Below are positions 9,683 through 54,513 of a DNA stretch of 64,000 nucleotides, one piece after another. This DNA comes from Pseudomonadota bacterium. GTDB lineage: Bacteria > Pseudomonadota > Alphaproteobacteria > JBCCHK01. Made by a program: the position numbers and the translations under genes. How positions within the stretch are numbered: position 1 is the stretch's first letter; each line of letters starts with the position of its first letter. The DNA is taken from the NCBI GenBank assembly GCA_039028835.1, contig JBCCHK010000008.1:6698-70697 (forward strand), in the 5' to 3' direction. The notes below the pieces were generated by a model that saw only the letters and a list, made by a program, of their open reading frames with translations, searched no databases and was not told the origin of the DNA.

Positions 9683-10183
9683 ATGAGCTCTAATCTTGGC
9701 AATCAGCACAATCAAGGGTATACTCCCACCAAGGAAGATGCCGCAGTGACTGTCACGCAATACAAGACCGCTGTCTTTAACAACCAGGACCCTCTGGTCG
9801 TCGAGCAACAAGCCCTCAAGTGGGTGAACGACAAGCTCGGCATGGCGAAAGGGGCTGGGGCGAACAGCATCCAGATGATTACAGCCCTGCACGAAAATCG
9901 TGAGCTGTGGCTGTGCCTCATGCATGATGTGGCCAGTGATGACAATGGCCTGTCTAAAGAGCTGAAGGCAAACATTGCCTCTCTGGCTTTGTGGGTCTAC
10001 CAGCACAGTGCCCGCGTTTTAGACGATGAGGCGGATGTGGAAGACCTGATTCACGTCAACAGCCTTATTGCTGAAGGTCTGCGCCAGGCCATGGAAAATC
10101 GTGCTGCGCAAGCCCCTGGGGCCAGCAAAGCCGCCCAAGGAGATCCCTCAGCGACACCTGGGCGGATCAGTTCCGAAGTTTAA
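9683..10183 (+). CDS. flaF: Flagellar biosynthesis regulator FlaF.
   Basis: The 'NRELWLCLMHDVASDDNGLSKELKANIASLALWVYQHSARVL' block matches the FlaF family pattern and lies immediately downstream of a flagellin-like gene. No flbT partner is present. Confidence 0.6.
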   Translation: MSSNLGNQHNQGYTPTKEDAAVTVTQYKTAVFNNQDPLVVEQQALKWVNDKLGMAKGAGANSIQMITALHENRELWLCLMHDVASDDNGLSKELKANIASLALWVYQHSARVLDDEADVEDLIHVNSLIAEGLRQAMENRAAQAPGASKAAQGDPSATPGRISSEV

Positions 10184-25094: not shown

Positions 25095-25108
25095 GAGGAT
25101 ATAAAAAG

Positions 25109-28849: not shown

Positions 28850-30453
28850 AAATACGTGCGCAAATAGGCATGGTGCTTAATCTCGATAAATGTATTGGGT
28901 GTCACACCTGCTCAGTCACTTGTAAGAATGTCTGGACGTCTCGCGAGGGCATGGAATATGCCTGGTTCAATAATGTTGAAACCAAGCCTGGTGTTGGCTT
29001 TCCTAAGCAATGGGAGAATCAGGAACAATGGCATGGCGGGTGGCACCGCACAAAGAGTGGAAAAATCCATCCCAAACAAGGGGGACGCTGGCGCATTTTG
29101 GCGAAGATTTTTGGCAATCCAGATATGCCAGAAATTGATGATTATTACGAGCCGTTTACTTTCGATTATGACCATCTTCAAAACGCCCCTGAGTCAAAAA
29201 ATATGCCAACGGCACGGCCACGATCCTTAGTGTCCGGGCAGCGCATGGAGAAGATTGAATGGGGGCCAAATTGGGAGGAAATTTTAGGCACTGAGTTTGA
29301 ACACCGGCGCAAGGATTATAATTTTAAGAATATGGAAGAGCAGATGTATGGAGAGTTTGAAAACACCTTCATGATGTATCTTCCGCGCTTGTGTGAACAT
29401 TGTCTGAATCCAACCTGTGTGGCGTCCTGTCCATCGGGCTCTATTTATAAACGTGAAGAAGATGGTGTGGTTCTGGTCGATCAGGATAAATGTCGCGGCT
29501 GGCGCATGTGCGTATCGGGCTGTCCGTATAAGAAGATTTATTATAACTGGAAATCCGGTAAGGCAGAAAAGTGCACGTTATGCTATCCGCGTCTTGAAAA
29601 CGGAGAGCCAACGGTATGTTCAGAGACCTGTGTCGGGCGCATTCGATATCTGGGTGTGATTTTATACGATGCAGACCGTATCGAGCAGGCCGCAAGCGTT
29701 GCCAATGAGGAGGATCTTTATCAGGCACAGTGCAACATCTTCCTTGATCCCCATGATGCAAAGGTCATAGCCCAGGCACGAAAAGACGGCATTCCTGGGA
29801 ACTGGATTGAGGGGGCGCAAACCTCACCAGTGTACAAAATGGCGATAGACTGGAAAGTAGCCTTCCCGTTGCATCCTGAATATAGAACTTTACCGATGGT
29901 TTGGTATGTTCCGCCGCTGTCTCCCGTGCAAAATGCAATCCAAACAGGAAAACTACCGACAAAAGGCATTTTGCCTGATGTGGATAAAATGCGCATTCCG
30001 GTGAAATATTTGGCCAATATGCTCACCGGCGGCAAGGAAGAACCGGTTGTTTTGGCTCTTAAACGCTTGATGGCGATGCGTCATTTTATGCGAGGCGAGT
30101 TGACCCAGGGCAAGGCCGATCCGAAGGTATTACAAGAGGTCGGCCTTACTGCGTCTTTGGTGAAGGATATGTACAAAACGATGGCACTTGCTAACTATGA
30201 AGATCGCTACGTGATACCGACCGGTCACCGTGAGGAAACGCTGGATGCTTACGGCGAAAGCGGTGCTTGCGGCTTTAGCTTCGGCAATGGTTGTGCTTTG
30301 CATTCCCATAGTGATGTTGATCTCTTTGAAAATCCAATGAACTGGCGCGGTCGTAGTGCTTCTGGCAAAGACAACCGTGTGAATACATTGTTCACCCAAG
30401 GAAAAACAAGCACATCAGGCGGCTGCGGTAGCGGCGGCTGTGGTTGTAATTAG
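28846..30453 (+). CDS. narH: Respiratory nitrate reductase beta subunit.
   Basis: The N-terminus 'MKIRAQIGMVLNLDKCIGCHTCSVTCKNVW' is near-identical to the enterobacterial NarH start. Multiple Cys ferredoxin clusters are present. There is an unusual Cys/Gly-rich C-terminal extension. Confidence 0.9.
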   Translation: MKIRAQIGMVLNLDKCIGCHTCSVTCKNVWTSREGMEYAWFNNVETKPGVGFPKQWENQEQWHGGWHRTKSGKIHPKQGGRWRILAKIFGNPDMPEIDDYYEPFTFDYDHLQNAPESKNMPTARPRSLVSGQRMEKIEWGPNWEEILGTEFEHRRKDYNFKNMEEQMYGEFENTFMMYLPRLCEHCLNPTCVASCPSGSIYKREEDGVVLVDQDKCRGWRMCVSGCPYKKIYYNWKSGKAEKCTLCYPRLENGEPTVCSETCVGRIRYLGVILYDADRIEQAASVANEEDLYQAQCNIFLDPHDAKVIAQARKDGIPGNWIEGAQTSPVYKMAIDWKVAFPLHPEYRTLPMVWYVPPLSPVQNAIQTGKLPTKGILPDVDKMRIPVKYLANMLTGGKEEPVVLALKRLMAMRHFMRGELTQGKADPKVLQEVGLTASLVKDMYKTMALANYEDRYVIPTGHREETLDAYGESGACGFSFGNGCALHSHSDVDLFENPMNWRGRSASGKDNRVNTLFTQGKTSTSGGCGSGGCGCN

Positions 30454-30464
30454 GGAATAGGACA

Positions 30465-31172
30465 ATGAAGACATTAAAAGTTTTGGGCGTTCTGCTGACG
30501 TATCCCTCGGCCGATTTGATGAAAGCTTTACCGGAGTTGCAGAAAATCCTGAAAAAAGAAAAATGGTTGTCAGAAAAATCGTTAAAAACGCTTGGCCATT
30601 TGATGGATTGGATGAGTGCGCAGGACTTGCTAGATTTACAAGAAGAGTTTGTTGCGCTGTTTGATCGTACGCCGTCGCTTTGTTTACATTTGTTTGAGCA
30701 TGTCCATGGCGACTCGCGTGATCGCGGGCAGGCTCTGGCTGATCTCTCAGAGATTTATAAAGACGCAGGTCTGCTTATTAATACTGAAGAAATGCCTGAT
30801 TTTCTGCCGCTGTTTTTAGAGTATCTTTCTGTGATTGATGCGCAAGAGTCACGCCAGAACTTGGGAGAGATTGCCAATGTTCTGGGTGTTTTAGCCAGGC
30901 GTTTGAACAGTAGGCGCTCACCTTATGCTTGTGTGTTTGAAGGGCTCATTGAGGCGGCGGCCCGTAAGCCTGATAAAAAGGCTGTTGAAGCGGCCCTTAA
31001 AGATGCGACCGGTAAGGCAGGGACGTTTGAGGAGCTGGATCAATCATGGGAAGAGCAGAACGCTTTCGAGAACTCCTTACAAACCATAGAGCAGAATATG
31101 AGCGGCGGTTGTCCAAAGGCCGAGGCCATGTTGGCGCAGATGAACCTACCAAAAGAAAACGAGGAGGTATAG
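30465..31172 (+). CDS. narJ: Nitrate reductase molybdenum cofactor assembly chaperone.
   Basis: Its position between narH and narI, its size and the TorD-like N-terminus support the call. Confidence 0.8.
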   Translation: MKTLKVLGVLLTYPSADLMKALPELQKILKKEKWLSEKSLKTLGHLMDWMSAQDLLDLQEEFVALFDRTPSLCLHLFEHVHGDSRDRGQALADLSEIYKDAGLLINTEEMPDFLPLFLEYLSVIDAQESRQNLGEIANVLGVLARRLNSRRSPYACVFEGLIEAAARKPDKKAVEAALKDATGKAGTFEELDQSWEEQNAFENSLQTIEQNMSGGCPKAEAMLAQMNLPKENEEV

Positions 31173-31176
31173 AGCT

Positions 31177-31851
31177 GTGGATTTCTTTTTATTTCAGATT
31201 TTCCCTTATATTGCGATCGCTGTTTTTGCGTTGGGGAGCATTCTGCGGTTTGACCGTGATCCTTATTCGTGGCGCTCAAAATCTAGCCAGCTTCTAAGAC
31301 GAAAACAATTCATTGTTGGTAGTATTCTGTTTCATTGCGGGATTATCACGATTTTGCTCGGGCATATTGTGGGGCTACTAACCCCGATTGCGGTGTTTGA
31401 TGCTGTGGGCATTTCCCATGGTGTAAAGCAGATTTTGGCGATGACGGCTGGCGGGATTGCGGGAGTATTTTGCTTTATCGGGCTGGTTATGTTGCTTCAT
31501 CGTCGTTTGGTTGATCCGCGTATTCGTGCGACCAGTTCTTTTTCGGATATTGCTGTATTGGTTTTGCTTTTGGCGCAGCTTTGTCTGGGGATGTATACGA
31601 TTACGGAATCGATGAAGCATTTAGACGGGCATGAAATGGTTAAGTTCATGGAATGGGCCCAGCATATCGCAACACTCCGTGGTGGGGCTCATCATTATGT
31701 TTCTGATGTGGCGTGGGTATTCAAAGTGCACCTGGTGCTGGGGATGTTTATTCTCTTTGTCTGGCCCTTCACAAGGCTTGTACATGTGTTCAGTGCACCG
31801 GTCGGATTTGTGTTCCGGCCTTATCAAATTGTTCGTAAAAGGGAGATTTAG
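31177..31851 (+). CDS. narI: Respiratory nitrate reductase gamma subunit (cytochrome b).
   Basis: It is 224 aa with five TM helices carrying the conserved His ligands. Confidence 0.85.
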   Translation: MDFFLFQIFPYIAIAVFALGSILRFDRDPYSWRSKSSQLLRRKQFIVGSILFHCGIITILLGHIVGLLTPIAVFDAVGISHGVKQILAMTAGGIAGVFCFIGLVMLLHRRLVDPRIRATSSFSDIAVLVLLLAQLCLGMYTITESMKHLDGHEMVKFMEWAQHIATLRGGAHHYVSDVAWVFKVHLVLGMFILFVWPFTRLVHVFSAPVGFVFRPYQIVRKREI

Positions 31852-31854
31852 GAG

Positions 31855-32616
31855 ATGGTTGCTGCGCCCAGTATTAGCGTAAATGGTATCAAAATTACAC
31901 CTCAGCAAATTAATGCGGAGGCGCAATATCATCCGGCTGAAAGTTTTTTTAGTGCCCAATATGAAGCCACGCAGGCTTTGGTCGTACGGGAGCTTTTAAT
32001 CCAGCGGGCGGTTGATTTGGGGCTTTGTCAACACGACGCAGGGATCAAAAATCCGGATGACGTTTTGGTAGCATTGTTTGAAAAAGAAATAGTGCTTCCT
32101 GAAGCAGATGAGCAAACATGCCGGCGTTTTTATGAGCAGAATAAAAAGCGATTTTTTACTGCACCCTTATTCGAAGCAGCGCACATCTTATACCCAGCCC
32201 CGCCGGGGGATAAGCAGGCCCGCGACGCTGCCTTAGAAAAAGCACAAAAAGCGTTGGTGCGGATTATGCAAAAGCCAGAGTGTTTTAAGACAATTGCGAG
32301 AACAGAGTCGGCGTGTTCATCTGCCAAAATGGGCGGGCATCTTGGGCAGATCACCAAAGGGCAGACGGCGCCCGCTTTCGAGGCAGCATTGCTTGATATG
32401 CAAGAGGGGGATCTTTCCGAACAGCCCCTAGCCAGTGAGTTTGGCTATCATTTGATTAAGGTTCATAAACGTCTTGAAGGCAAACAATTGCCTTTTGGTG
32501 CCGTGCATGAATGGATTGTCGATTATCTGCAGCAGCAAAGCTGGCAGAGGGCTTTTCGTCAGTATGTTCAGCTTTTGGCAGGACAGGCCAAGGTAAGCGG
32601 ATTCCAGCCAGGCTGA
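31855..32616 (+). CDS. PpiC-type (parvulin) peptidyl-prolyl cis-trans isomerase, nar-associated.
   Basis: A parvulin domain ('SAKMGGHLGQITKGQTAPAFEAA', 'FGYHLIKV') is present. From memory, this is the same position as the PpiC-type gene after narI in Pseudomonas nar clusters. Confidence 0.65.
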   Translation: MVAAPSISVNGIKITPQQINAEAQYHPAESFFSAQYEATQALVVRELLIQRAVDLGLCQHDAGIKNPDDVLVALFEKEIVLPEADEQTCRRFYEQNKKRFFTAPLFEAAHILYPAPPGDKQARDAALEKAQKALVRIMQKPECFKTIARTESACSSAKMGGHLGQITKGQTAPAFEAALLDMQEGDLSEQPLASEFGYHLIKVHKRLEGKQLPFGAVHEWIVDYLQQQSWQRAFRQYVQLLAGQAKVSGFQPG

Positions 32617-32709: not shown

Positions 32710-32814
32710 TCTTAATGAACAGGGGAACGATGGGGCGCGTGGCCTTGTGGTTCAGCGGTAGACCCCGCCGCTCATAACGGTGTTGTCGTAGGTTCGAATC
32801 CTGCCGGGCCACCC
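32710..32814 (+). repeat. Right copy of the ~105-bp direct repeat (tRNA-Met-like plus leader) bracketing the nar island.
   Basis: It aligns to 20699-20803. Confidence 0.7.
32741..32814 (+). tRNA. tRNA-Met(CAT)-like sequence, probably a degenerate copy or pseudo-tRNA.
   Basis: It is ~90% identical to the tRNA at 20729-20803 and has the same CAT anticodon loop. However, the acceptor stem (GGCCTTG vs CGGGCCA) has a G1:A72 and a C3:C70 mismatch, the D-stem has a mismatch, and there is no encoded CCA. Confidence 0.45.
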
Positions 32815-33109: not shown

Positions 33110-35617
<2,508 letters not shown>

Positions 35618-41830: not shown

Positions 41831-42539
41831 TAGCGCGTGGGTATGATGATAAGGGGTCTTTAGGATGCGATAAGGCGGGCGTTTGGGCAAGGGGGTCGCA
41901 AGGGGGTCGTAAGAGGGTTTGGATAAGAGGGTTTGATGATCGTAGGCGGCGTGCTGAGGCGTTATAATTTTATAAAAAGAATAAAATAAAGAATAATCAA
42001 GGAGTTAAAAATTCATGTTTTTATTGACAAATGAGAAATTTTAATTCATTATAACAAAATAATGATGCCAAGATAAACCTACTTATCTCAAGATAAAAGG
42101 TCATCCTCGCATCAGCCGGCCCCACCTCGCCAGTCCCGGTTTGTACATTCATAACAATGTATGGCTCTGTTTTTCATATTGCTGATCGATCCCTTTTCAT
42201 ATCCTTTAGGGATCGATGAGCAAAACAAAGGGAGCAAACAAGGGCGATGTCATCTTAGGGCCGGTAGCCTCCTACTCTTTACAGTCTACCTAGACGTTTG
42301 ATGGCTTGTTTGTCGTGCCTTCGTGCACGACGAGCACCGTAAGAAGTGCGTAAGCGTTTCTTACATCTAATGAGCAACGAATAGACCTTAGGCGCTGGTG
42401 TGCCGGTTTTTTGTTCCGTGGCGAGCGTAATCTTATCAGTCATTTTCTTAAGGTGATGACGCTAGCACCACCAACAGAAAAAAGGTACCCCTCTCGCTTA
42501 AGGTCTATTCATCCAACAAAATAGAAAAAGGTTGTATGA

Positions 42540-43397
42540 ATGAGTACACAAATCAACAAATGGTTCATCGAAGAGTTTCAAACAGATGTCCATGCCGCTT
42601 ATCAACAGCAAGGGGCGCGTCTGCGTCATACCGTGAGAACAAAAAATAATGTCCGCGGCGAAAAAACACACTTCAACACAGCAGGTATCGTCGGTGTTGG
42701 CGATAAAGCACGCGGCGGTAACGTCCCCATTATCACCGGCGGCCGAGGCCGAGTCGAGTGCACCCTGATTTCAAAATATGGCGGCGACTATGTGGAAGAT
42801 ATCGATGAGCTGAAAACCAATATCGATGAAAAACAAGTCATCGCCATGTCTTTTGCTTGGGCGCATGGTCGCCATACGGACAATTTGATTATCGAGGCGA
42901 TCACCCAAGACACCAATACGCACCGGGTCAACGATGCAAACATCGCCACAGGCCTTAAGTCTGCCCATGTTCAAGAGGCGCTGGAAAAACTCAACCAAGC
43001 TGATGTGCCGGATGACGGCGCGCGCACGGCACTTGTCACGCCCCATGCGTGGGAAGAGCTTTTGGCTATCGATGCCTTTGCCAAGGCGGATTATATCGGC
43101 AAGGAGTCCTTGCCGTGGCTTGGTGGCTCGGAAGCCAAACGGTGGCGCAACTGTCTGTGGATGATGCATACCGGTTTGCCGATCAATACGGAAAACAAAG
43201 TCGCAAGCTGTGTGATTTTTCACAAAACTGCGGTCGGTCATGCGATTGGCAAGGAACTGGAAGCACAATGGTCTTGGGAAAATACAAAATCCGCATGGTT
43301 TTTGAATACCCGCATGTTGCAAGGGGCCTGTCTGATCGATCCTAAAGGTGTGGTGAAGATCCATGTCAAAAACAATCAACCCATCAGCACCTCATAA
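42540..43397 (+). CDS. Phage major capsid protein (T7 gp10-like).
   Basis: The C-terminal blocks 'VIFHKTAVGHAIGKEL' and 'MLQGACLIDPKGVVKIHV' parallel T7 gp10 'LFMHRSAVGTVKLRDL' and 'AMGHGGLRPEAAGAVVFKV', as recalled from memory. Confidence 0.6.
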   Translation: MSTQINKWFIEEFQTDVHAAYQQQGARLRHTVRTKNNVRGEKTHFNTAGIVGVGDKARGGNVPIITGGRGRVECTLISKYGGDYVEDIDELKTNIDEKQVIAMSFAWAHGRHTDNLIIEAITQDTNTHRVNDANIATGLKSAHVQEALEKLNQADVPDDGARTALVTPHAWEELLAIDAFAKADYIGKESLPWLGGSEAKRWRNCLWMMHTGLPINTENKVASCVIFHKTAVGHAIGKELEAQWSWENTKSAWFLNTRMLQGACLIDPKGVVKIHVKNNQPISTS

Positions 43398-43421
43398 CGA
43401 TCTATAGAAAGGACCTAATCA

Positions 43422-43667
43422 ATGGCTTTTAGTAAAAAAAATCTCGCGGCCATCGCGTACGCAGATGGACAAACCACTTGGCAATACAAAACCGATGATG
43501 ACGCAAATGCGATCCAGGGAAAAGGTTATTTTAATGATGCCTCCCATATGCTCAAGGAAAAGGATTTCATCCTTATCTCCTATAACGGCGGGTTTGCGAT
43601 TTATCAAGTCAAGACCAGCACCGGCGGTGCTGTGACGTTGGAAACGGCCAAGATCACGTCCGAATAG
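43422..43667 (+). CDS. Small phage protein (possible capsid decoration or minor capsid).
   Basis: It is 81 aa and sits in the gp10B-equivalent position. It has no motifs. Confidence 0.35.
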   Translation: MAFSKKNLAAIAYADGQTTWQYKTDDDANAIQGKGYFNDASHMLKEKDFILISYNGGFAIYQVKTSTGGAVTLETAKITSE

Positions 43668-43755
43668 CACATACAAAAACACAAAGGGGGAGGGAGAATC
43701 GGGTCTTTATCTCCTTACCTGATATCTTCCTCCCCCGACGTGCCCACCGGAGTCG

Positions 43756-44331
43756 ATGACAATGAATCCCTATCAACTATGCTCGCGCGCCTTGATTAAA
43801 ATCGGCGCCAACCCAATTCACAGTTTTCAAGAAGGCACAGCCGAATCAGACGTGGCGGGTCTTCTTTATGATATGACTCGCGATGGGTTGTTGTCCATGC
43901 ATCCGTGGTCTTTTGCCACGGCCCATAAATCTTTGCCGCGCCTACAAGCGCCACCCCTTGCCGATTACAGCTATGCCTATCAACTTCCTGTTGATTTTTT
44001 GCGTGCCCTTTCGGTGGGGAATCACGATCTGAACACGGCGCAAAGGGGTGATTACCGTATCCATCAAAACCTGATCCATACGGACCTCACACAAGTCATG
44101 CTCAGTTATATTTTTAGGCCGTCTGAGGATTCATTACCGCCTTTTTTTCTGGGAGCGCTTATCACGCGCCTCGCGGCGGAGTTTTGCTTGCCAATCACCG
44201 AAAATACGTCGCGCGCCAAAGAGCTTTACAGACTCGCCCAAGACGAGCTGCGCCTTGCTAAGGGAATCGATAGCCAACAGCAAATCCCGCGTCAGCTTAG
44301 TGACTTTACCCTCATTAACGTACGAGGATAG
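43756..44331 (+). CDS. Phage tail tubular protein A (T7 gp11-like).
   Basis: It is 191 aa against 196 aa for T7 gp11. The N-terminal pattern 'ALIKIGANPIHSFQEGTAESDVAGLL...HPWSF' matches T7 '[28 protein letters not shown]...RGWTF'. Confidence 0.6.
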   Translation: MTMNPYQLCSRALIKIGANPIHSFQEGTAESDVAGLLYDMTRDGLLSMHPWSFATAHKSLPRLQAPPLADYSYAYQLPVDFLRALSVGNHDLNTAQRGDYRIHQNLIHTDLTQVMLSYIFRPSEDSLPPFFLGALITRLAAEFCLPITENTSRAKELYRLAQDELRLAKGIDSQQQIPRQLSDFTLINVRG

Positions 44332-44336
44332 CCATC

Positions 44337-46067
44337 ATGGGTCGTGCCCCCGTACAACAATTCAGTTTCACCTCAGGTATGTTGGATGACTCGCTGGAGG
44401 CTCGCTCTGATCTTGCGTCGTACTACAGCGGTGGGCGTGAAATCCTTAACATGCTGATCTTACCCCAAGGAGGACTTTATACCCGTAGCGGTCTTGCCTT
44501 CATCAGCGAGCAACCCGAAGCCTTTGCGGGTGCTCGGCTCGCACGTTTTGAGTTTTCACCAGCGCAGCGATATTTGCATGTATTTACTCATAGAAAACTT
44601 CATGTTTATTACCAAGATAAACCCGTTGCGACTATCGCCACACCCTGGACAACGCAGCAATTAGCGCAGATAGATTGGGCACAGTCACTCGATACGATGA
44701 TTGTCGTGCATCCCGATGTGCCACCCCAGAAAATTATGCGCGCCGGCGCGCATAACAGCTGGTCTTGTGGGCCGCTTACCCTTAAAAACGTTCCTAAGCA
44801 TACGTTTGCTGGCACGCGCAAAGAAGCGGCGTGGTCTGATGCGCGAGGTTGGCCCCGCAGCGTGTGCCTTTATCAGGGGCGGATGTATTTTGGTGGATCA
44901 AAAGGTCGTCCGCAAACCATCTGGGGTTCCAGTTCTAATCATTTTTTTGATTTTAGGGTCACGAGCGGCCAGCCATTGGATGATGACTCGGTGGAGATGA
45001 CATTGGATAGCGATCAGATTGCTACCTTTGAGCAACTCTATCCTCGCGCCGGGTTGCTTGCGTTTACGACTAGCGGCTTGTTTTTCCAAAAAGAAAGTCC
45101 AGTCACGCCAAAAAACTTTATTTTTAGCCGGCACGTCAATTTGCCAGCCGCAAGGATTAAACCCGTCGAGTTAGAAGGGGAGATCCTGTTCGTCCGTCGC
45201 GGCGAGGACGGCCACCATCAATCGGTTCATGAACTGGTATTTGATGAGGGTCGGCAGATTTACACAACCCAGGACATTGCGCTGCTTTCATCAAGGCTCA
45301 TGCGCGCGCCGATCCGTATGGCGGCCCGTTATGGTGATGAATCACAGTCCAATCATCATCTTTATATCGTGAATGGGCGCGATGGTACGCTCGCTGTTTT
45401 TAATTCACGGCGCAAACAAAACGTCAGCGGCTGGAGCTTGCTCCAGACTGCAGGAAAATTCAAAGATATCGCTGTGCTCGGAACGCATGTCTACTTTCTT
45501 GTCGAGCGCACAATTAATAATAAACGCAAGGTTTTTATAGAAAAAATGGATCCTGAACATAGATTGGATTTCTCAATACGGCAAACATCTAAAACAGCAA
45601 AGACTGACTGGTCTGGATTATCTCATCTTTCTGGCATGACAGTTCATGTTATGGGCAATGGGGTCGATATGGGGGTTCAATCTGTTGAAGATGGGCAAAT
45701 ACGAACGCCCCATCCTGTCAATGATATGCAGGCCGGTTTGGCCTTTGATTGGGCGGTGGAGACCATGCCGCTTGCGGCCAAACTTGCTGATGGCTCTCTT
45801 GTCGCGGCGCGTCACCGCATCGTGCAAGCAGGCATTTATGTGCAAGACACGATTACGCTTAAGGTCAATGGCCGGGCGGTATCGTTTGCACGACTCGATA
45901 AACCAGGGATATTGGATGCACCACCAACGCCTTTTACGGGATTAAAAACCGTTCGGTTTTTTGGCTGGTCAGGCGGGGCTCACTCGCGGGGCGGCGGTAC
46001 GGTGCGATTAACAGGAACATCAACGGGACCGGCAACGATCCTATCTATAACAGCGGAGGTATCCTAA
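44337..46067 (+). CDS. Phage tail tubular protein B-like (gp12 position).
   Basis: It is a large protein immediately after gp11-like and translationally coupled to it. The call rests on synteny only. Confidence 0.45.
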   Translation: MGRAPVQQFSFTSGMLDDSLEARSDLASYYSGGREILNMLILPQGGLYTRSGLAFISEQPEAFAGARLARFEFSPAQRYLHVFTHRKLHVYYQDKPVATIATPWTTQQLAQIDWAQSLDTMIVVHPDVPPQKIMRAGAHNSWSCGPLTLKNVPKHTFAGTRKEAAWSDARGWPRSVCLYQGRMYFGGSKGRPQTIWGSSSNHFFDFRVTSGQPLDDDSVEMTLDSDQIATFEQLYPRAGLLAFTTSGLFFQKESPVTPKNFIFSRHVNLPAARIKPVELEGEILFVRRGEDGHHQSVHELVFDEGRQIYTTQDIALLSSRLMRAPIRMAARYGDESQSNHHLYIVNGRDGTLAVFNSRRKQNVSGWSLLQTAGKFKDIAVLGTHVYFLVERTINNKRKVFIEKMDPEHRLDFSIRQTSKTAKTDWSGLSHLSGMTVHVMGNGVDMGVQSVEDGQIRTPHPVNDMQAGLAFDWAVETMPLAAKLADGSLVAARHRIVQAGIYVQDTITLKVNGRAVSFARLDKPGILDAPPTPFTGLKTVRFFGWSGGAHSRGGGTVRLTGTSTGPATILSITAEVS

Positions 46068-46069
46068 TC

Positions 46070-46465
46070 ATGGGTGGAAGTTTTATCTATAAGGCCCTTC
46101 CCTTGGCCCTTGGCGCAAGCCAACAAAACCAAGCAATACGGGCGCAAGAGCAGCAAGCACGTTTGCAAGCATCCCAGCGCCAGCTGACGCTCGCGCAACG
46201 TAAACAAGAACAGCAGCGTAAATTGCGTGAGTCTCTAGCTACACAAAACAATCGGTATGCGGCCATGGGCGTAAGCCGAAGAAGTGGCTCGGCGCACCGC
46301 CTTGCACGCGCAACGCAAAGCGACTCCCATCGCGCGCTTGGCCTGCTCACGCAAAAAGGCGAGAACGAAGATACTCGCCATCGCCTTACCTTACAAGGAC
46401 TCAAACACAAGCGACATTCTTTGTATAGAAAATCTATGTTTGATCTTCTCAAAAGAGAGCGCTAA
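46070..46465 (+). CDS. Phage hypothetical protein with a Gln/Arg-rich coiled N-terminus.
   Basis: Its position after the tail tubular genes is the only support, and it has no motifs. Confidence 0.35.
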   Translation: MGGSFIYKALPLALGASQQNQAIRAQEQQARLQASQRQLTLAQRKQEQQRKLRESLATQNNRYAAMGVSRRSGSAHRLARATQSDSHRALGLLTQKGENEDTRHRLTLQGLKHKRHSLYRKSMFDLLKRER

Positions 46466-46474
46466 CGGCCTACG

Positions 46475-46681
46475 ATGAATAAAATACGCAAAACCTATGA
46501 AGAAGGCTTACAAGAAGGACGAATTGAAGCCATGAAAAGTACCCTTGACCGGCACGATCTTCGCCTAACCGATCATGCGCGACGTCTGCAAATCCTAGAA
46601 CGGCTGTTTTGGGCATGCGTTGGGATTGTCGCCTTTGTGCAGGTCTGGCCAGACCTGCAACGTTTTCTTTTAGGTGATTGA
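46475..46681 (+). CDS. Small phage membrane protein (holin or antiholin candidate).
   Basis: A coiled N-terminus is followed by a single C-terminal TM 'LFWACVGIVAFVQVW'. It overlaps the endolysin start. Confidence 0.35.
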   Translation: MNKIRKTYEEGLQEGRIEAMKSTLDRHDLRLTDHARRLQILERLFWACVGIVAFVQVWPDLQRFLLGD

Positions 46682-47241
46682 CAATGAGCATAGAAAAAAG
46701 GCCACAAATAAACACAGAAACGATGATTGATGATGTGATCTCCCGTGAGGGCGGTTTCGTCAATCATCCTGATGATCGGGGCGGGGCGACAAACTATGGT
46801 ATTACCCAGGCAACTCTCTCGGCTTGGCTTGGCCGGCGTGCGCGGCTCGCCGAAGTACAGAATCTTGATATCGATACTGCACGGGCGATTTATGCGAGGC
46901 GATATCTGTCAGCGCCGCGCATCGATACGCTCACTCAAAGGATTGTGCCCTTTGTTTTTGATACGGCGGTATTGCATGGTCCGCGCAGTGCGATCCGGCT
47001 TCTTCAGCGGGTGCTGAACCGGGCAGGATTTGGCAAGGTTTGTGTCGATGGCGTGATCGGCCCGCAAACCCGCAAGGCTTGCGAGGCCGCCGATCGTGTG
47101 ATGGGCCCTTACCTGCTTGATGCGTTGTGTGAGCAGCGCCGGGCAATCTATCACCGCATTGTTGCGAGAAATCCTTCACAAAAGGTTTTTCTTCGTGGCT
47201 GGCTTAACAGACTTAAACATTTTAAGGATGAAACATCATGA
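46678..47241 (+). CDS. Endolysin of the GH108 family with a C-terminal PG_binding_3 domain.
   Basis: 'VISREGGFVNHPDDRGGATNYGITQATL' is the GH108 N-terminal signature with its catalytic Glu. 'VDGVIGPQT' is peptidoglycan-binding-like. Confidence 0.75.
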   Translation: MTMSIEKRPQINTETMIDDVISREGGFVNHPDDRGGATNYGITQATLSAWLGRRARLAEVQNLDIDTARAIYARRYLSAPRIDTLTQRIVPFVFDTAVLHGPRSAIRLLQRVLNRAGFGKVCVDGVIGPQTRKACEAADRVMGPYLLDALCEQRRAIYHRIVARNPSQKVFLRGWLNRLKHFKDETS

Positions 47242-47831
47242 ATCTACTTGCAGGACTACAAGGACTTCTCACCGGCGGCAAGTTCGCCCTCCCTGAGATT
47301 GCCAAGATCATCAAACCGCTCGCTGGTGATCGCGGCCAACGCGATCAAGCGGCGCATCAAGAAAATATCGCAACCTATGACCAATTCAAAGCGGAGTTTC
47401 AAAACAGCGGGATGACCTGGTTTGATCGTGTCGTTAATGGTTTTAATCGCTTGCCGCGGCCGGTTATTGTAAGTTTGGTTATTCTATATTTTATTCTGTC
47501 TTTTGTGGATCCGTTGCTGTTTCAACAGATCAACAATGGATTGGATAGCGTGCCTGATAATATGTGGATTATCGCGGGCGGGATTATCAGCTTTTATTTT
47601 GTCGTGCGTGAGATTAACCACAAGCGCATGTCGCAATCAGCCAAAGAGTTTGACCAGCGCATGGCGCGCCATGATGCGCTGCAAGAGCGGCGCCAAAACC
47701 GGCAACGCCAAGCACAAGAGATACATCAAGAGGGCGCGCAATTTGATCCGGCGCAAACCGATCATGACTTTGCCAATGAGCAAGCAAACCACGGGCAAGA
47801 ATCGCAGCCAGACGAGCCACGCGCGGGCTAG
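47238..47831 (+). CDS. Phage holin (3TM/GTA-holin-like membrane protein).
   Basis: The TM helices are 'RPVIVSLVILYFILSFV' and 'MWIIAGGIISFYFVV', followed by a charged C-terminal tail. It is coupled to the endolysin. Confidence 0.5.
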   Translation: MNLLAGLQGLLTGGKFALPEIAKIIKPLAGDRGQRDQAAHQENIATYDQFKAEFQNSGMTWFDRVVNGFNRLPRPVIVSLVILYFILSFVDPLLFQQINNGLDSVPDNMWIIAGGIISFYFVVREINHKRMSQSAKEFDQRMARHDALQERRQNRQRQAQEIHQEGAQFDPAQTDHDFANEQANHGQESQPDEPRAG

Positions 47832-48721
47832 CCCATAGGCTTGGCACGCATTTTTGTGCGCTTGCCTAGCACGTGGGCGACTTGCGCTATTGCGGGCGAG
47901 TCGAAGGATAAGAGAGACAAGACAGACTGGTCATAGTGACTAAATGCGGTGGCTTCTTCACAAGAGCAGCCAAACCATACCGGTTGGCGGTGGATCGTTG
48001 TCTCCATGTGGGCGCGTGGTTGGTTGGTGGTCGCGGCCGCAAGGGAGAGGGCTGGCGGTGTTTCGTGCTTGTTCTTCCCTTGGCGAGTATAGACGAGTCC
48101 TTGTTGTTGGGCTGCACGACTGGACTTCGCCCAGGTTATTTTTTTATGCTGGCAGTGGATCAGCACGCACGTTCGGCTGGTATGCTCAATCCAGCGCAGG
48201 GCCATGGCAACCAGTGATACGCCATAGTGATCGGCGCAGGCGCTCAAGTCTTCAAGGTCAATATGCTCATTAGCGGGTAGCGTAGAGCGCAGGTCATCGA
48301 TGGGCATGAGCAAAGCCGAGGCGAAGTTGTTGGCCTGATGTTCTACTTGCGAATAGGTGGCCCAGGTAAAATCCTCATCGCGGCAATGTAACCCTTTGGG
48401 ATAGGTGGCGCGGTGCATGAGGTAATGGCCGAACTCGTGGGCGAGGGTGAAGCGGATGCGCCCTTGGGATTTGATATCGTGGTTATAGATAATGCCCCAT
48501 CCTTTCTCGCCGCGCGGATCAGGGATGAGCCCGCCATCAAAGCCGGGCAAGGATGCCCCTTTGATCATGGTGATGGCATCAGTGGGGTATTTAAGAGCAG
48601 TATAGGATTTTGCAAGACGTGCGACGTTAACGGGAAACCTATTCTCGCCGGTGGTGCGTTTGTGGGCAAGCGAGATGATGCTTGCCCACCTGTGTGGCGG
48701 ATGGGAGGCCGGTTGCGTCAT
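47828..48721 (-). CDS. ImmA/IrrE-family metallopeptidase (DUF955) with an extended Cys-containing C-terminus.
   Basis: The HEXXH motif 'LAHEFGHYLMH' is present. It lies downstream of an XRE regulator on the same strand. Confidence 0.75.
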   Translation of the reverse strand: MTQPASHPPHRWASIISLAHKRTTGENRFPVNVARLAKSYTALKYPTDAITMIKGASLPGFDGGLIPDPRGEKGWGIIYNHDIKSQGRIRFTLAHEFGHYLMHRATYPKGLHCRDEDFTWATYSQVEHQANNFASALLMPIDDLRSTLPANEHIDLEDLSACADHYGVSLVAMALRWIEHTSRTCVLIHCQHKKITWAKSSRAAQQQGLVYTRQGKNKHETPPALSLAAATTNQPRAHMETTIHRQPVWFGCSCEEATAFSHYDQSVLSLLSFDSPAIAQVAHVLGKRTKMRAKPMG

Positions 48722-48744
48722 GGTGTTGTTGTTGACCGAAGTTA

Positions 48745-49152
48745 CTACCAGAGTTCCGCAATTTTACGGATTTTCTTTTTCACATCGGGTGAGAGTTTAC
48801 GATATTTGCGAAAGAACATTTGATCGACCGCATCGGCTTCCTTGATTTTATCTTCGTCATCGAGAAGATAGTTAATTGTGACGCCAAGGGCAGCGGCAAT
48901 TTTCAAGAGTTTGTCTGCGGACGGGTGTGGGAGGTTATTGTTTTCTATTTCCCAAATGTGGCTTTTGCTGGAGTCCGTCAAGTTGGCAAGGGTGTCCAGG
49001 GTGAAGCTCTTTTCTTTGCGCAGCTTGTAGATTTTATCGCCGAGGGTCTCTCTTCCTCTGCTGATGATGCGCTTGGCGGGTGGCCGCCCGCGCGGGCGCT
49101 TGGGTTTGCTTGGTTTTAGTATGGGCTTGAGTCTTGTGGCTGCTTTGGGCAT
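48745..49152 (-). CDS. XRE-family HTH transcriptional regulator (phage repressor-like) with an N-terminal AT-hook-like basic segment.
   Basis: The HTH is 'FTLDTLANLTDSSKSHIWEIENNNLPHPSADKLLKIAAALGVTINYLL'. The N-terminus carries 'KPKRPRGRPPAKR'. The start is trimmed to an internal Met. Confidence 0.7.
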   Translation of the reverse strand: MPKAATRLKPILKPSKPKRPRGRPPAKRIISRGRETLGDKIYKLRKEKSFTLDTLANLTDSSKSHIWEIENNNLPHPSADKLLKIAAALGVTINYLLDDEDKIKEADAVDQMFFRKYRKLSPDVKKKIRKIAELW

Positions 49153-49718
49153 GAGTATCTCCTCGTCATCATGGGTCAAGGCTACGTTACTGGCTTTTGA
49201 TAAAGGCGCATACCTCAAGGGGGCTTTCCAGAGGCTTACCTATTCACTTTACATAAATCAAAATACCCGATGAACGCAAGGGTTTTCTTTTGATTTTTGC
49301 GATTTTCGTCCATTTTATCACGCATTTTTTCATTATTTTTTCCAAAAGATGAAAATAATTTTATATTTTAAACAATACACCTATGGCTCGGGCATGTAAG
49401 GCCTTTATTTCGACTCCCTTCCCGTCATTCCTGCGTAGGCCGGAATCCAGGAGATGGTGCAACCCACACGATATCTGCAAAGACATGCGCGTCGATGTTA
49501 GCAAGCGCCAATGGATCATGAACCCTTGGTCAAGGCCGGTCTTGGCCAGACGGGCAGGATTCCGTGTTGTATCTGTGCTTGTGGTCACCCACGTGAGGTC
49601 CCGAGTAAGCACCGTGGTTGTTGCTAAGGCCGCGCCTTGCCGGTCTCTTGCGCTACCTCCCTAATCGATCTTTAATGGAAGGCTGATAGCTCACCTTTTC
49701 CACAACCCTGAGGCTTTT

Positions 49719-51129: not shown

Positions 51130-51165
51130 TTGACAAATGGTAAATACTGCGGTATAGCATGAACA
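51130..51165 (+). promoter_or_regulatory. Sigma70-like promoter element TTGACA-N17-TATAGC.
   Basis: The hexamers and their spacing were read directly from 'agTTGACAaatggtaaatactgcggTATAGCatg'. Its orientation is antisense to the downstream minus-strand membrane gene, so its function is uncertain. Confidence 0.3.
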
Positions 51166-51235
51166 TAATGTCTTTTTTATTGAATAATAATGCGAAAAAG
51201 CCAAGGTTCTGCTTGGGGGTGGTTTTCTTTGCTAC

Positions 51236-52105
51236 CTACAGCCCCCATAGGCGGGCACTCCTGAGGCATTGCAAGCCACAAAGGCCGAAGATGAGAGCGC
51301 TGAACACTGTCCAATCGACCTCGAAGAAAAAACGCTCAAAGCGAACATCGGGAATAGGAGCACTGCCGAATATTGCTACCAGAAACTCGCTGAAGAAGAG
51401 GAAAGAAAGTAAGGCCGTGATAATCAGTAAGGGGCGTGCAAACCTTGGTGTGGGAACGAGAAAGGTTATACAAGTCATGCAAGCGAGCATAAGAACGAAC
51501 CAAATCAAAAACGCATCCGAAACTTGTAAGACAAAAAAAGAAAACGCAACCAAACCAAAAAAAGTCAGATACAAGATTTTTACGACGCGACCAGAGTCAC
51601 CACCAGGTGAGAGACCGATCCAGCTTCTCCGTTGTAGGCCGTTATACCCGCGCATATTCATGCGATCCAGTCGTCTCATGGCCTGTGCGCGGGAATTATC
51701 ATCAGAAATAAACTTGGAAAGGTATTCCCGCCAGATGAGCACAACGATGAATATGAGCGGAAAACCGATTGTTTGTAATTTTAATCCACGGTCGTACGTC
51801 TCACCCATCTGCGATACAGACCAAGCGAGCCCCGCCACGGCGAGCAAGGTTGTGGCTTTATTCAGCCAAGGCTTAAAGGTCGGCACAGGGTAAAAGGACC
51901 AGAATGCGATGCCGCTCCAAATGAAGAAGATCATCATGACCAAGAAAAGCCATCTCGTCAGTTCGATCGTTGGGGCTAGGGTCATGTGGGAAACCGCGAG
52001 GATCACAAGGGCGAAGACAGCCCAGTACAGGATCAAGCCCGCCCAGCGACGGCCAGGATTCTTGATTTTAGGGCGTTCTAGTTTCTTAGGGCGCTCTAGT
52101 TTCAC
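51236..52105 (-). CDS. Hypothetical polytopic membrane protein (~8 TM). The N-terminus may be shorter.
   Basis: Strongly hydrophobic TM segments are present throughout. It lies in a low-GC segment divergent from the 781-aa ORF. The annotated N-terminus 'KLERPKKLERPK' derives from a 17-bp tandem DNA repeat and may be upstream regulatory DNA. Confidence 0.45.
   Translation of the reverse strand: MKLERPKKLERPKIKNPGRRWAGLILYWAVFALVILAVSHMTLAPTIELTRWLFLVMMIFFIWSGIAFWSFYPVPTFKPWLNKATTLLAVAGLAWSVSQMGETYDRGLKLQTIGFPLIFIVVLIWREYLSKFISDDNSRAQAMRRLDRMNMRGYNGLQRRSWIGLSPGGDSGRVVKILYLTFFGLVAFSFFVLQVSDAFLIWFVLMLACMTCITFLVPTPRFARPLLIITALLSFLFFSEFLVAIFGSAPIPDVRFERFFFEVDWTVFSALIFGLCGLQCLRSARLWGL
52066..52099. 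repeat. 17-bp tandem direct repeat ×2 (tagggcgYtctagtttc) in the divergent intergenic region or the N-terminus of the membrane gene.
   Basis: Read directly from 'cttagggcgttctagtttcttagggcgctctagtttc'. Confidence 0.8.
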
Positions 52106-52167
52106 GACATAACCTTTTATTTTTTTTAACTACTTTATCAAAAAAATTTAACTTTAGGAGTTTTATC

Positions 52168-54513
52168 ATGGCCTATTCACAGTTTCAAAGCGGCGAGAAA
52201 AAGGTCGACTTAGAAAACGATATCGGGGCTAAGGTTCTGGAGGAGGTGGCATGGGCTCTAGTGAGTGGTGTAGAAGCTGCTGCCAAGGATGTCGTCGGTG
52301 AAAAAGGCGAATTCATCGATGGTGGTCCTAAAACACGCGCTGGTAAAATTGCCAGTCAGATCACGCGATACGGCATTTTCTTTGCATCATTCTTCACGGG
52401 TGTGGGGGCTGTCGCAAGAGTTATGCAGGGTGCGCGATTGGCCCGTGCGTTACACGGTACACGATTAGCGGGTGCGGTGCCTAAGATCCAGACTGCGGGA
52501 CGCGCTATCGAGAAGGAACGAGCTTTTATCGCCGCTGATGCCACTGATTTTCTTACGCGTGAGGAACCCTATGACACCAGTGAAAGGGTTATGAGCATAA
52601 CAAGAGGTCTTAATGTCAATCGCTTCGGCGATAATATCCTCAAGCACGCAGATAAAGACTCGCTCGTCAGAAAATTACTGGAAAATGAAGAAGTTCAAAA
52701 GACTGTTAAGTCTGCGGATATCATCTTGGGAAGCACTGTTATAGAAAATATCGCTGAAATAATAGCCGGGGATGACATCCCCCCCAGGGATGTAACCAAC
52801 GTTATCATTAACGTAACAGCACAAAGTTTTGATAAGAATATCAGGCAAGCGATCAAAGAAGGAAAGATCGAAGAGCCCGTCGACAATCTCTCACGATTGT
52901 CCGGTCTTTCCCCGGAGGAGCTGATGGACCTGCACGAAGGAAAAACAGACCCCGTCCAGATTGTTGCCATCAATGAAGCCCTGACCCTCGGCCCAAAAGC
53001 CTATACCACCATCGCCGAGGTCACAAAATCAGCCGGCCCCCTCGGCCAGCTTCAGGCATACAACACCCACAGCACCTTTACCCTGATGCAAGGCATCGCC
53101 AGAAAAGAACCCAAGCAAATCAATCAAGCAATGCAAAACCTTGACCGAACATCCCAAGCCCAGCAAGCCATCGGCTTGACCACAGACAAAAACAAGCAAC
53201 GCGAGATTGTCTTTGCGTGCCTTGGTGATGAGGGAGTCGATATGACCTATCACCTGGTGCAATCAGCGAGCAAAATCGCACAAGAAAAACCTGACAGATT
53301 CGGGGAGTTCATCCATGATGCCAACAGGTCGATAGATACCGAAGAACTTGGCAACGTCCATAAAGGATACCTCACTGATGATCCTTATGACCGCTTTGAG
53401 GACTATCGATCCTTACGCGAAAGGCAGAATAAATTCGATCCGGAACAAGGTACGCCTCTTCAGATCAATGATGTGCCAGAAAATCTCATTCCCGTTAAAA
53501 TGAAACGCGCACAGCAAGCCCAAGAAAACGCACAAGAAAGCGCACAGAAAAACACGCCAGCAGGGCAACAACAAAACCAATCACAACCAGCCAAAAACCA
53601 GCAACAAGCCCAAGCCCAGCGCTCCGCACCCAACGCGGGGGCAAAGCCTGGCCAGCAGTATTCAGCCGCCGATCAGCGGCTCATCGCCCTTGCCCAAGTC
53701 ATCGCCCAAGCGAAGGCCCAGCAGCAACAAAACCAAGCCCAAGCGCAACCCCAGACAGACACAAAACCCAATCCACAGCGCATCGGCCAGGCTGCCGCCC
53801 GACACCTCGCAGAGCTTGAGCAGGCCGCCGCGCAAAGGCGCCAAGCCCGCGCCAAAATCGCCGAACGACATGATGCTCAGACCATGGCCAAAGAAACAGA
53901 ACTCATCAAAGCCATCACAGAAGGTCAGCGCAGAGCCGACGCCCAGGCAAGAGCCGCCCAAGCCCAACAGCAACAAGCCAACGAGGCGCAAGCAACGCAA
54001 CCTTTCGAAGAGGAACAAGCCCAAGAGCGATACCCCGCCGGATCACGATACCGCCCCGCGCCACGTTCAAAGACCTTAGGCGGCGGTAACGTCCAAGCGG
54101 GCCGCAACCGCGGACGCAACCTGATGGCGTCGGTCGGAGGCTCCTCCTCTTCCTCTACAGCATCAAGCCGCCCCCAACGCCCGGCCAGCCAGCAACAGAA
54201 TGACAACCGTGATGATAACCGTTCGGACAGCACACGTTACGTCCAAAACAGGCGTAAGGCCAATTCCAATGCGCCCTATCATCCGCTTTACAATCCCTAC
54301 CGGCGGGAGCCTTCCCGTTCGGGCGGCGATACCCAAAACAGGCCCTCCCGCACCCCATCGCGGCGGCGCGGGCTTAGCGGTTATGAACGATATCGCGATC
54401 ATATCAGTGACCGAAGCCCTTCGAGTCCGTCAAATAAAGCAAATAAGTCAAGTCGCTCGCGTTCCCGCAGCACCTACTCGGGCTATGGGCGGTTTGGAGG
54501 ATCCGGACGGTAA
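52168..54513 (+). CDS. Large hypothetical protein (781 aa). It has a globular N-terminal ~450 aa, a Gln/Ala-rich coiled region and an Arg/Ser/Gly-rich basic disordered C-terminus.
   Basis: A strong RBS (taggag-N7-ATG) precedes it. No signal peptide is present. The low-complexity central region is 'AQAQQQQNQAQAQPQ...' and the C-terminus is 'SRSRSRSTYSGYGRFGGSGR'. It has no recognisable catalytic motif. Confidence 0.55.
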   Translation: MAYSQFQSGEKKVDLENDIGAKVLEEVAWALVSGVEAAAKDVVGEKGEFIDGGPKTRAGKIASQITRYGIFFASFFTGVGAVARVMQGARLARALHGTRLAGAVPKIQTAGRAIEKERAFIAADATDFLTREEPYDTSERVMSITRGLNVNRFGDNILKHADKDSLVRKLLENEEVQKTVKSADIILGSTVIENIAEIIAGDDIPPRDVTNVIINVTAQSFDKNIRQAIKEGKIEEPVDNLSRLSGLSPEELMDLHEGKTDPVQIVAINEALTLGPKAYTTIAEVTKSAGPLGQLQAYNTHSTFTLMQGIARKEPKQINQAMQNLDRTSQAQQAIGLTTDKNKQREIVFACLGDEGVDMTYHLVQSASKIAQEKPDRFGEFIHDANRSIDTEELGNVHKGYLTDDPYDRFEDYRSLRERQNKFDPEQGTPLQINDVPENLIPVKMKRAQQAQENAQESAQKNTPAGQQQNQSQPAKNQQQAQAQRSAPNAGAKPGQQYSAADQRLIALAQVIAQAKAQQQQNQAQAQPQTDTKPNPQRIGQAAARHLAELEQAAAQRRQARAKIAERHDAQTMAKETELIKAITEGQRRADAQARAAQAQQQQANEAQATQPFEEEQAQERYPAGSRYRPAPRSKTLGGGNVQAGRNRGRNLMASVGGSSSSSTASSRPQRPASQQQNDNRDDNRSDSTRYVQNRRKANSNAPYHPLYNPYRREPSRSGGDTQNRPSRTPSRRRGLSGYERYRDHISDRSPSSPSNKANKSSRSRSRSTYSGYGRFGGSGR

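Follow-up and report, generated by a model that had tools for sequence, protein, structure and literature searches.

An orphan 781-residue protein with a polycationic disordered tail, encoded beside a divergent membrane-protein gene on compositionally foreign DNA in an alphaproteobacterium

The subject of this analysis is a protein of 781 amino acids (aa) encoded in a stretch of 64,000 nucleotides (64 kb; hereafter the window) of the metagenome-assembled genome (MAG) GCA_039028835.1, an alphaproteobacterium (contig JBCCHK010000008.1, positions 6,698 to 70,697), together with its divergently transcribed neighbor, a polytopic membrane protein. The gene for the 781-aa protein is real and intact, its product is an orphan, the DNA coding for its N-terminal part and for the partner is compositionally foreign, and the protein itself combines a foldable N-terminal region bearing a single hydrophobic helix with a Q/A-rich low-complexity region and a polycationic disordered tail (Table 1). 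We tentatively favor the explanation that the pair is the cargo of a mobile element, and that the 781-aa protein is non-enzymatic, possibly tethered to the membrane, with a tail that binds a polyanion. The functional half of this explanation is one that we infer, as are its elements: an association with the membrane, a cytoplasmic location, polyanion binding, a link to the partner and an origin in a mobile element.

The reality of the gene is supported by several features. The open reading frame (ORF) is preceded, as the initial annotation had stated, by a good ribosome-binding site, with AGGAG placed 7 nt 5' of the ATG. Disruption of the frame had been raised there as a possible objection; the frame is intact, and the NCBI MAG agrees on its sequence with an independent assembly, that of run SRR22824298 by Logan (0 mismatches in 21,468 bases compared between the two assemblies). 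The G+C content (GC) at the three codon positions is 0.62/0.45/0.54 (GC1/GC2/GC3), and the coding-type order GC1>GC3>GC2, which is the pattern of the genes of this genome, appears in frame 0 only. Furthermore, 781 open codons at about 54% GC far exceed the chance expectation. The genes flanking the orphan pair are those reported earlier, namely a flavin mononucleotide (FMN)-dependent dehydrogenase (lldD-like) and a histidinol-dehydrogenase homologue (hisD-like).

Sequence searches strongly confirm the orphan status of the protein, which has no detectable relative and, as first noted, belongs to no recognized family; a self-match was all that the databases searched returned. Neither the whole protein nor four segments of it gave a family match in Pfam, PHROGs, NCBIfam or PADLOC (thresholds: E<=0.1 for the whole protein in Pfam and NCBIfam, E<=10 for the segments and E<=1 for PADLOC). 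A full-length word-indexed search of 5.8 billion clustered proteins recovered only the protein itself. As the candidate list of this full-length search was probably dominated by Q/A words, residues 1-460 were then run exhaustively with phmmer against 1.84 billion representatives, again with only the self-match. The best hit among PDB sequences (E 0.35) is noise. Searched with tblastn, 50,697 phage records contain no match to the N-domain, the C-terminal half or the membrane partner at E<=1, and 72,556 plasmids none to the N-domain or the partner; the N-domain also found no match in IMG/VR or in JGI metagenomes. The housekeeping families whose homology might have explained the protein otherwise also failed to match: there is no Pfam or NCBIfam match to FliK, TolA, PopZ or ZipA. 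The protein further shows no match to an RRM or KH domain and no Walker A, HExxH, DEAD, CxxC or LPxTG motif, and it has no paralogue among the proteins of the window. A literature search on its Sequence Read Archive run returned no result.

The N-terminal region (residues 1-445) is of ordinary composition and predicted to be helical, which agrees with the earlier description of a foldable region of about 450 aa; by charge-hydropathy most blocks of 40 aa are called folded up to about residue 360. It opens with an acidic segment (net charge -5 in the first 50 aa and -3 over residues 1-64) that has no signal-like or hydrophobic stretch, consistent with the signal peptide having been judged absent. 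The only hydrophobic helix of the protein, a feature absent from the first reading, follows at residues 65-88, and is itself directly followed by a stretch of about 35 aa rich in Arg and Lys. This helix is a possible membrane anchor in the N-out/C-in orientation, or a buried core helix; its insertion into a membrane is uncertain because its uncharged core, between R67 and R83, spans just 15 residues (Y68-A82). From residue 89 to about 420 the composition is again ordinary and the prediction, at low confidence, all-helical. The best self-diagonal score of the N-terminal region does not exceed that of shuffled sequences, i.e. it contains no internal repeats. As no alignment can be built for this protein, structure models are poor: AlphaFold2 without an alignment gives a predicted local distance difference test (pLDDT) score of 37 for residues 1-460 and of 41 for the full length, with residues 1-445 modelled as helical at pLDDT 30-49. 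A Foldseek search of the PDB with the low-confidence model of the N-domain yields noise (best E 1.3, TM<0.2).

The middle region had been described as Q/A-rich and coiled. The first part of this description stands, since residues 446-620 contain 45 Q and 43 A among 175 residues, encoded in their first part (53503-53768) by imperfect DNA repeats with periods of 12, 23 and 33; the coiled coil does not. Most of the region is predicted to be disordered, except for two helices in the AlphaFold2 model (500-521 and 536-608). The second of these is the sole element of the protein that is modelled with confidence, and it is not a canonical coiled coil because, whatever the heptad register, hydrophobic residues (I/L/V/M/F) occupy at most 3 of 21 a/d positions. 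The tail (residues 621-781) is called disordered by charge-hydropathy, has no secondary structure in the AlphaFold2 model, and is dominated by S (31), R (30), G (17), P (13), N (13) and Y (10). The peptides quoted in the initial annotation are present in the translation, and its account of a basic, disordered and SR-rich C-terminus holds; the RGG element does not, as RGG tripeptides number zero by motif count. SR and RS dipeptides number 19 in the whole protein, 13 of them within the last ~160 aa. The last 50 aa carry 13 K/R and 3 D/E (net +10), including an alternating-Arg run RSRSR at 763-767, and the motif STYSGYGRFGGSG lies at the extreme C-terminus. Cys and Trp occur once each in the entire protein. 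A role as a nucleic-acid-binding scaffold would be compatible with the composition of this tail.

In the divergent partner, seven to eight hydrophobic segments are arranged in a positive-inside pattern; their number is close to the eight transmembrane (TM) segments attributed to the protein at first. It looks like a genuine membrane protein with its own terminator, a hairpin followed by a T-run just past its stop codon, and it has no homologue in Pfam, PHROGs, NCBIfam or PADLOC, or among the proteins, phages and plasmids searched. The start calls for its gene differ: PGAP places the start at a TTG at residue 55, whereas the Logan gene caller uses the GTG at 52105. The 235-aa PGAP form cuts off the first transmembrane helix, whereas the 289-aa form has a basic N-terminus with a doubled KLERPK and a consistent 8-TM positive-inside topology. 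The tandem repeats of 17 bp reported in the promoter region do exist, although as two copies of 18 bp, and in the 289-aa reading they code for the KLERPK doublet, being intergenic only under the PGAP call. The 62-bp region between the two genes contains no match to the sigma-70 consensus and no inverted repeats, and shares no operator-like motif with the prophage control regions beyond chance. A good sigma-70-like promoter (TTGACA-17 nt-TATAGC) occurs at 51130-51158 on the forward strand, facing antisense into the 3' end of the membrane-protein gene, or the 781-aa gene 1 kb away. It has the 10-mer TTGACAAATG in common with positions 42024-42033 upstream of the capsid operon of the neighboring prophage remnant (see below), a match between the two regions that is expected about 0.5 times by chance.

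The foreign character of the segment is apparent from several measures of composition. Its GC is 0.46-0.51, versus 0.54-0.66 in the surrounding DNA, its GC3 is 0.51-0.58, and its codon-bias score is about 0, versus about 0.1 for core genes. The tetranucleotide correlation (r) of the segment to the core pool is 0.48, where equally sized chunks drawn at random from the core give 0.90 +/- 0.03. To the neighboring prophage remnant, the r of the segment reaches 0.71. In 1-kb windows r is 0.32-0.46 across 51.0-53.5 kb, lower than in any of 300 windows taken at random from the core (minimum 0.50); in the windows from 53.0 kb onward it is 0.71-0.73, the core mean being 0.79. The low-GC pocket had been placed at 50.9-54.6 kb. 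Its left end is upheld, whereas its right end lies at about 53.4 kb, as the DNA from 53.5 to 54.5 kb has 60% GC.

Table 1. Features of the orphan pair and the surrounding segment (positions in the window)
Feature	Coordinates	Strand	Details
Compositionally foreign segment	50871..53500	.	GC 0.46-0.51; right edge inside the 781-aa ORF
Terminator-like hairpin and T-run just past the membrane-gene stop	51201..51216	-	CCAAGCAGAACCTTGG then CTTTTTCGCA, - strand
Orphan polytopic membrane protein, 289 aa from GTG 52105	51236..52105	-	PGAP: 235 aa, MEM7047239.1
18-bp x 2 tandem repeat	52068..52103	.	TTAGGGCGYTCTAGTTTC; Tandem Repeats Finder
Divergent AT-rich intergenic region, 62 bp	52106..52167	.	~220 bp with the PGAP membrane-gene start
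AGGAG ribosome-binding site, 7 nt 5' of ATG	52156..52160	+	read from sequence
781-aa orphan ORF	52168..54513	+	GenBank MEM7047240.1, locus tag AAF442_06280; ATG start; stop included
Residues 1-445, N-terminal region, ordinary foldable composition, predicted all-helical	52168..53502	+	
Residues 65-88, only hydrophobic helix	52360..52431	+	ITRYGIFFASFFTGVGAVARVMQG; Kyte-Doolittle 19-residue mean 1.3-1.4
Residues 446-620, Q/A-rich low-complexity region	53503..54027	+	50% Q+A
Residues 536-608, long single helix, A/Q/R/E-rich	53773..53991	+	AlphaFold2 pLDDT 70-86
Residues 621-781, polycationic disordered tail, 161 aa	54028..54510	+	net charge +25

Under the explanation that we tentatively favor, the two genes would form a lineage-restricted divergent pair on a foreign insert of about 2.6 kb between native lldD-like and hisD-like genes, most likely cargo that a mobile element left behind, the first suspect being a prophage. 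The product would consist, in order, of an acidic N-tail of 64 aa, a weakly hydrophobic helix, an Arg/Lys cluster, an all-helical region of ~330 aa, a flexible spacer rich in Q, A and N with a single helix of ~70 residues in it, and the disordered tail. By the positive-inside rule, the rest of the protein would be cytoplasmic if the helix at 65-88 inserts. Its mode of action is most likely structural and not catalytic: the N-terminal part may localize the protein at the membrane, possibly beside the partner protein, while the polycationic tail, extended from there by the long spacer, might bind a polyanion electrostatically, nucleic acid being the obvious candidate. Such a protein would be a tether or scaffold in the manner of phage internal or DNA-entry proteins and of bacterial disordered RNA/DNA-binding tails.

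Several points weigh against this explanation. There is no homologue, so any function has to be inferred, and the AlphaFold2 models and the fold search offer only low confidence (pLDDT 37-41) and noise, respectively. The helix at 65-88 is short and moderately hydrophobic, and may be no membrane anchor. No integrase, tRNA or flanking direct repeats of the att type mark the island (Rfam detects only two tRNAs in the window), and the lldD gene between the island and the prophage remnant is compositionally native. The k-mer likeness of island and prophage may reflect no more than a shared lower GC, given that the nar operon gives an r of 0.69. Finally, the host-like composition of the C-terminal low-complexity half is unexplained by acquisition in a single piece. 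As the protein has no homologue at all, the functional alternatives originally put forward, namely an effector, a scaffold or a phage-derived protein, cannot be separated on the present data.

The boundary between foreign and host-like DNA at about 53.4-53.5 kb coincides with the transition from the helical domain to the low-complexity half (around residue 420-445). It may be caused by amino-acid composition, or by a tail that arose in situ on an acquired gene of ~440 aa. The latter possibility leads to a rather unlikely alternative, in which the ORF is a relic that has lost its function in part or entirely, or was recently extended in situ: an acquired gene of this size would have gained an unselected low-complexity C-terminus of 340 aa, either by loss of its stop codon and read-through or by repeat expansion. 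The foreign boundary falling exactly at the junction, the concurrent step in GC from 0.49 to 0.60 and the imperfect tandem repeats that begin the low-complexity half all speak for such a history; moreover, with a single known sequence there is no support for purifying selection. However, it is unlikely that 336 codons should stay open by chance in DNA of 60% GC without selection or a very recent origin, and the GC of the low-complexity half at the three codon positions (0.67/0.55/0.58) is still coding-like. The alternative-frame ORFs under this half have no family match, hence no overprinted older gene is indicated, and a composition rich in Q, A, R, S and G could by itself produce the k-mer shift. 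The coding strand also shows an AT skew of up to +0.71 at 53.5-54.0 kb.

A decayed podovirus remnant of the T7/HTVC010P type lies at 42540-49218 and ends 3 kb upstream of the 781-aa ORF. Its late module (42.5-47.8 kb) encodes a capsid protein (PF19821), an 81-aa ORF, tail tubular A (phrog_394), tail tubular B (phrog_376), a gp14-like internal virion protein (46070-46465; phrog_418, E 1.4e-6), a 68-aa ORF, a GH108 lysin and a 3-TM holin of the gene transfer agent type, and is followed by ImmA/IrrE and XRE genes on the opposite strand. The remnant has no terminase, portal, scaffold, large internal virion proteins of the gp15/gp16 type or fibers. Its closest phages are Pelagibacter phage Hodr (EXVC031P, OQ414635.1), whose capsid protein is 38% identical, and Methylophilales phage MEP301, with 35% identity in tail tubular B. 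The block of capsid, 81-aa ORF, tail tubular A and tail tubular B is found in >70 IMG/VR loci, several of them on short (10-19 kb) contigs of isolate genomes. In 80 IMG/VR loci with the block of capsid and tail tubular A and B there is no homologue of the 781-aa ORF or of its partner, and a compositional screen for large ORFs with basic tails found only spurious ORFs in contigs of 75% GC.

The proximity of this remnant brings up the unlikely alternative that the 781-aa protein is an internal virion (ejection) protein of the gp15 type that has been displaced; its basic tail would touch the packaged DNA, and during ejection its hydrophobic helix would make contact with the envelope of the host. 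The remnant keeps the capsid, both tail tubular proteins and the gp14-like protein, and lacks the large gp15/gp16-type proteins that follow gp14 in its relatives; in Hodr the ORFs after tail tubular B are of 159, 783 and 1247 aa, which is the gp14/15/16 pattern. The internal virion proteins of T7 (gp14, gp15 and gp16) and their Hodr counterparts are also comparable to the 781-aa protein in size class (781 vs 783 aa), in the all-helical prediction (in our case from low-confidence models; T7 gp15 is all-helical) and in very rapid evolution, as illustrated by the gp14-like protein of the window, which has no tblastn match in 80 related viral loci. The 781-aa protein, this gp14-like protein and the Hodr 159-aa protein also share the succession of a hydrophobic segment and a Q/A/R-rich helix. 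Nevertheless, the 781-aa protein shows no sequence or profile similarity to the internal virion proteins of T7 and Hodr (best BLASTP E 2.0 against the Hodr 783-aa protein), and no match to the phage records, to PHROG families (E<=10) or to the 80 capsid-tail loci; the near identity in length is probably a coincidence. Its gene is not part of the structural module and is found 5.7 kb past the end of the gp14-like gene (46465), with the lysis genes, ImmA/XRE and the native lldD intervening, and its divergent pairing with a polytopic membrane protein is unlike such a module. The disordered half of 340 aa with its polycationic tail sets it further apart from the T7 and Hodr proteins, being absent from the counterparts in Hodr and MEP301.

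The host seems to branch deeply within the Alphaproteobacteria and to lack close relatives with sequenced genomes. No protein in the 5.8 billion clusters exceeds 59-60% identity to its GyrB (33125-35617), the best matches coming from Rhodospirillaceae, Inquilinaceae and Dongiaceae MAGs (i.e. Rhodospirillales-like alphaproteobacteria), and the hisD homologue has no match above 61-62% identity. Among 32 loci with hisD homologues in GTDB species genomes, none has a match to lldD, glpK, the 781-aa ORF or its partner; as these loci share none of the neighbors, they provide no usable synteny and no close relative. Since any fast-evolving gene of so isolated a lineage would look like an orphan, the orphan status is less remarkable than it would otherwise be. 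The same argument speaks for another improbable alternative, that of a native, fast-evolving, lineage-specific scaffold, such as a polar or division organizer, an envelope spacer in the style of TolA, ZipA or FliK, or a condensate-forming nucleic-acid binder. The architecture of the 781-aa protein, with a candidate anchor helix, a long helical or disordered spacer and a charged tail, recalls that of bacterial scaffold proteins, and the k-mer composition of its C-terminal half is host-like. In particular, it resembles TolA, ZipA and FtsN-type proteins in that a single hydrophobic helix close to the N-terminus precedes long helical and low-complexity spacers. However, these proteins end in a conserved globular domain with a Pfam or NCBIfam match, whereas the 781-aa protein ends in a basic disordered tail without one; its domain order is the reverse of that in TolA and ZipA, with the globular part N-terminal and the tail C-terminal, and, unlike in these spacers, the positive-inside pattern predicts that its bulk is cytoplasmic. 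A native origin also sits poorly with the strongly foreign N-terminal two thirds and partner, with a codon usage unlike that of core genes, and with the lack of a match to the FliK, TolA, PopZ and ZipA families.

The tail also invites comparison with other proteins that possess long basic disordered regions. The C-terminal scaffold of RNase E, which contains AR-type RNA-binding segments and a membrane-targeting helix and forms condensates in alphaproteobacteria, is similar in its long, disordered, Arg-rich region and single candidate membrane-associating helix, and electrostatic binding of nucleic acid would be plausible for both. Unlike RNase E, the 781-aa protein has no S1, RNase H-like or catalytic domain, and it differs in the order of its segments, in its S/G/Y/N-rich composition, in its Q/A spacer and in the foreign island on which it is encoded. 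Eukaryotic SR domains and FUS-like [G/S]Y[G/S] domains share with it the SR/RS dipeptides and the C-terminal STYSGYGRFGGSG; with neither an RRM nor RGG motifs in the 781-aa protein, this likeness is compositional only and gives no sign of homology or phosphoregulation. It is conceivable, albeit distinctly improbable, that the membrane-tethered helical domain and the SR/[S/G]Y[S/G] tail represent a previously unseen bacterial family. Its members would organize membrane-associated nucleic acid, perhaps as a tether that forms condensates or, together with the 8-TM partner, as a device for DNA entry or exclusion; or else they would be delivered into a eukaryotic host, where the SR-like tail would mimic the domains of splicing factors.

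That the protein is a secreted effector directed at a host, exported by a type IV (VirB/D4-type) or another secretion system through its basic C-terminus, is very unlikely. The strongly basic last 50 aa and their RSRSR run would suit such a signal, and the foreign DNA, the orphan status, the near absence of Cys and Trp and the eukaryote-like low-complexity tail are common among effectors. The Agrobacterium VirB/D4 substrates VirE2, VirE3, VirF and VirD5 likewise have a positively charged, Arg-rich C-terminus. However, theirs is a short terminal signal on an ordinary protein, whereas in the 781-aa protein the whole of the last 161 aa is basic and disordered, and it contains no recognizable effector domain. 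The annotated ORFs of the window include no type IV or other secretion-system gene, and none for a chaperone or coupling protein; they belong to a Rhodospirillales-like bacterium that has flagella and respires nitrate, and they give no hint of life in association with a host. The positive-inside pattern at the hydrophobic helix suggests, moreover, retention in the inner membrane. Nothing that we found supports the idea of a secreted effector, the sole positive evidence being a basic C-terminus that is very unspecific.

Equally doubtful is a phage-exclusion or conflict system, i.e. a moron-like cassette of a membrane effector and a large sensor or scaffold: the divergent genes lie on foreign DNA near a prophage remnant and ImmA/XRE with what appear to be their own expression signals, and membrane proteins often serve as superinfection-exclusion factors, but neither protein matches PADLOC-DB 2.0 even at E<=1, neither a nuclease, NTPase or protease motif nor any other sensor or effector motif is present, and the pair is not adjacent to ImmA/XRE.

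The remainder of the window contains core alphaproteobacterial genes, including hisS, pdxA, ksgA, gyrB, aroA, rho, lolA and flaF. A respiratory nitrate reductase cluster at 22146-32616 encodes a 982-aa NarK with a double-MFS fusion, narG, narH, narJ, narI and a PpiC-type isomerase; with a GC3 of 0.46-0.53 and a tetranucleotide r to the core of 0.60, it was probably acquired horizontally, and it is followed by a tRNA-Met at 32740-32814. Directly upstream of flaF (9683-10183) lies an ORF of 554 aa (7987-9651) that has no Pfam match at 1e-5 and whose helices at both termini are flagellin/FlgL-like; it probably represents a highly divergent member of the flagellin family or a hook-associated protein. 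Between the XRE gene and lldD there is a geneless GC-rich stretch of ~300 bp (49370-49700) with the palindromic motif CATTCCTGCGTAGGCCGGAATCCAGG, which occurs once in the window; this stretch has no Rfam match, and its predicted folding is no better than that of shuffled sequences (z +0.96).

The 781-aa protein is one sequence from one metagenome and an isolated lineage, a setting familiar from long orphan genes on small inserts near decayed prophages, and the exhaustive sequence-homology searches of this analysis do not suffice to assign such genes. If it is functional, it would represent a rare bacterial instance of a very long disordered region (~340 aa) with a polycationic tail rich in SR and Tyr-Gly, attached to a domain that may be anchored in the membrane, and would be a useful case for the study of nucleic-acid tethering or condensate formation in bacteria, or of the biology of phage DNA entry. 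The presence of a boundary between foreign and native DNA inside a single ORF also provides a small but concrete lead on the origin of low-complexity tails.

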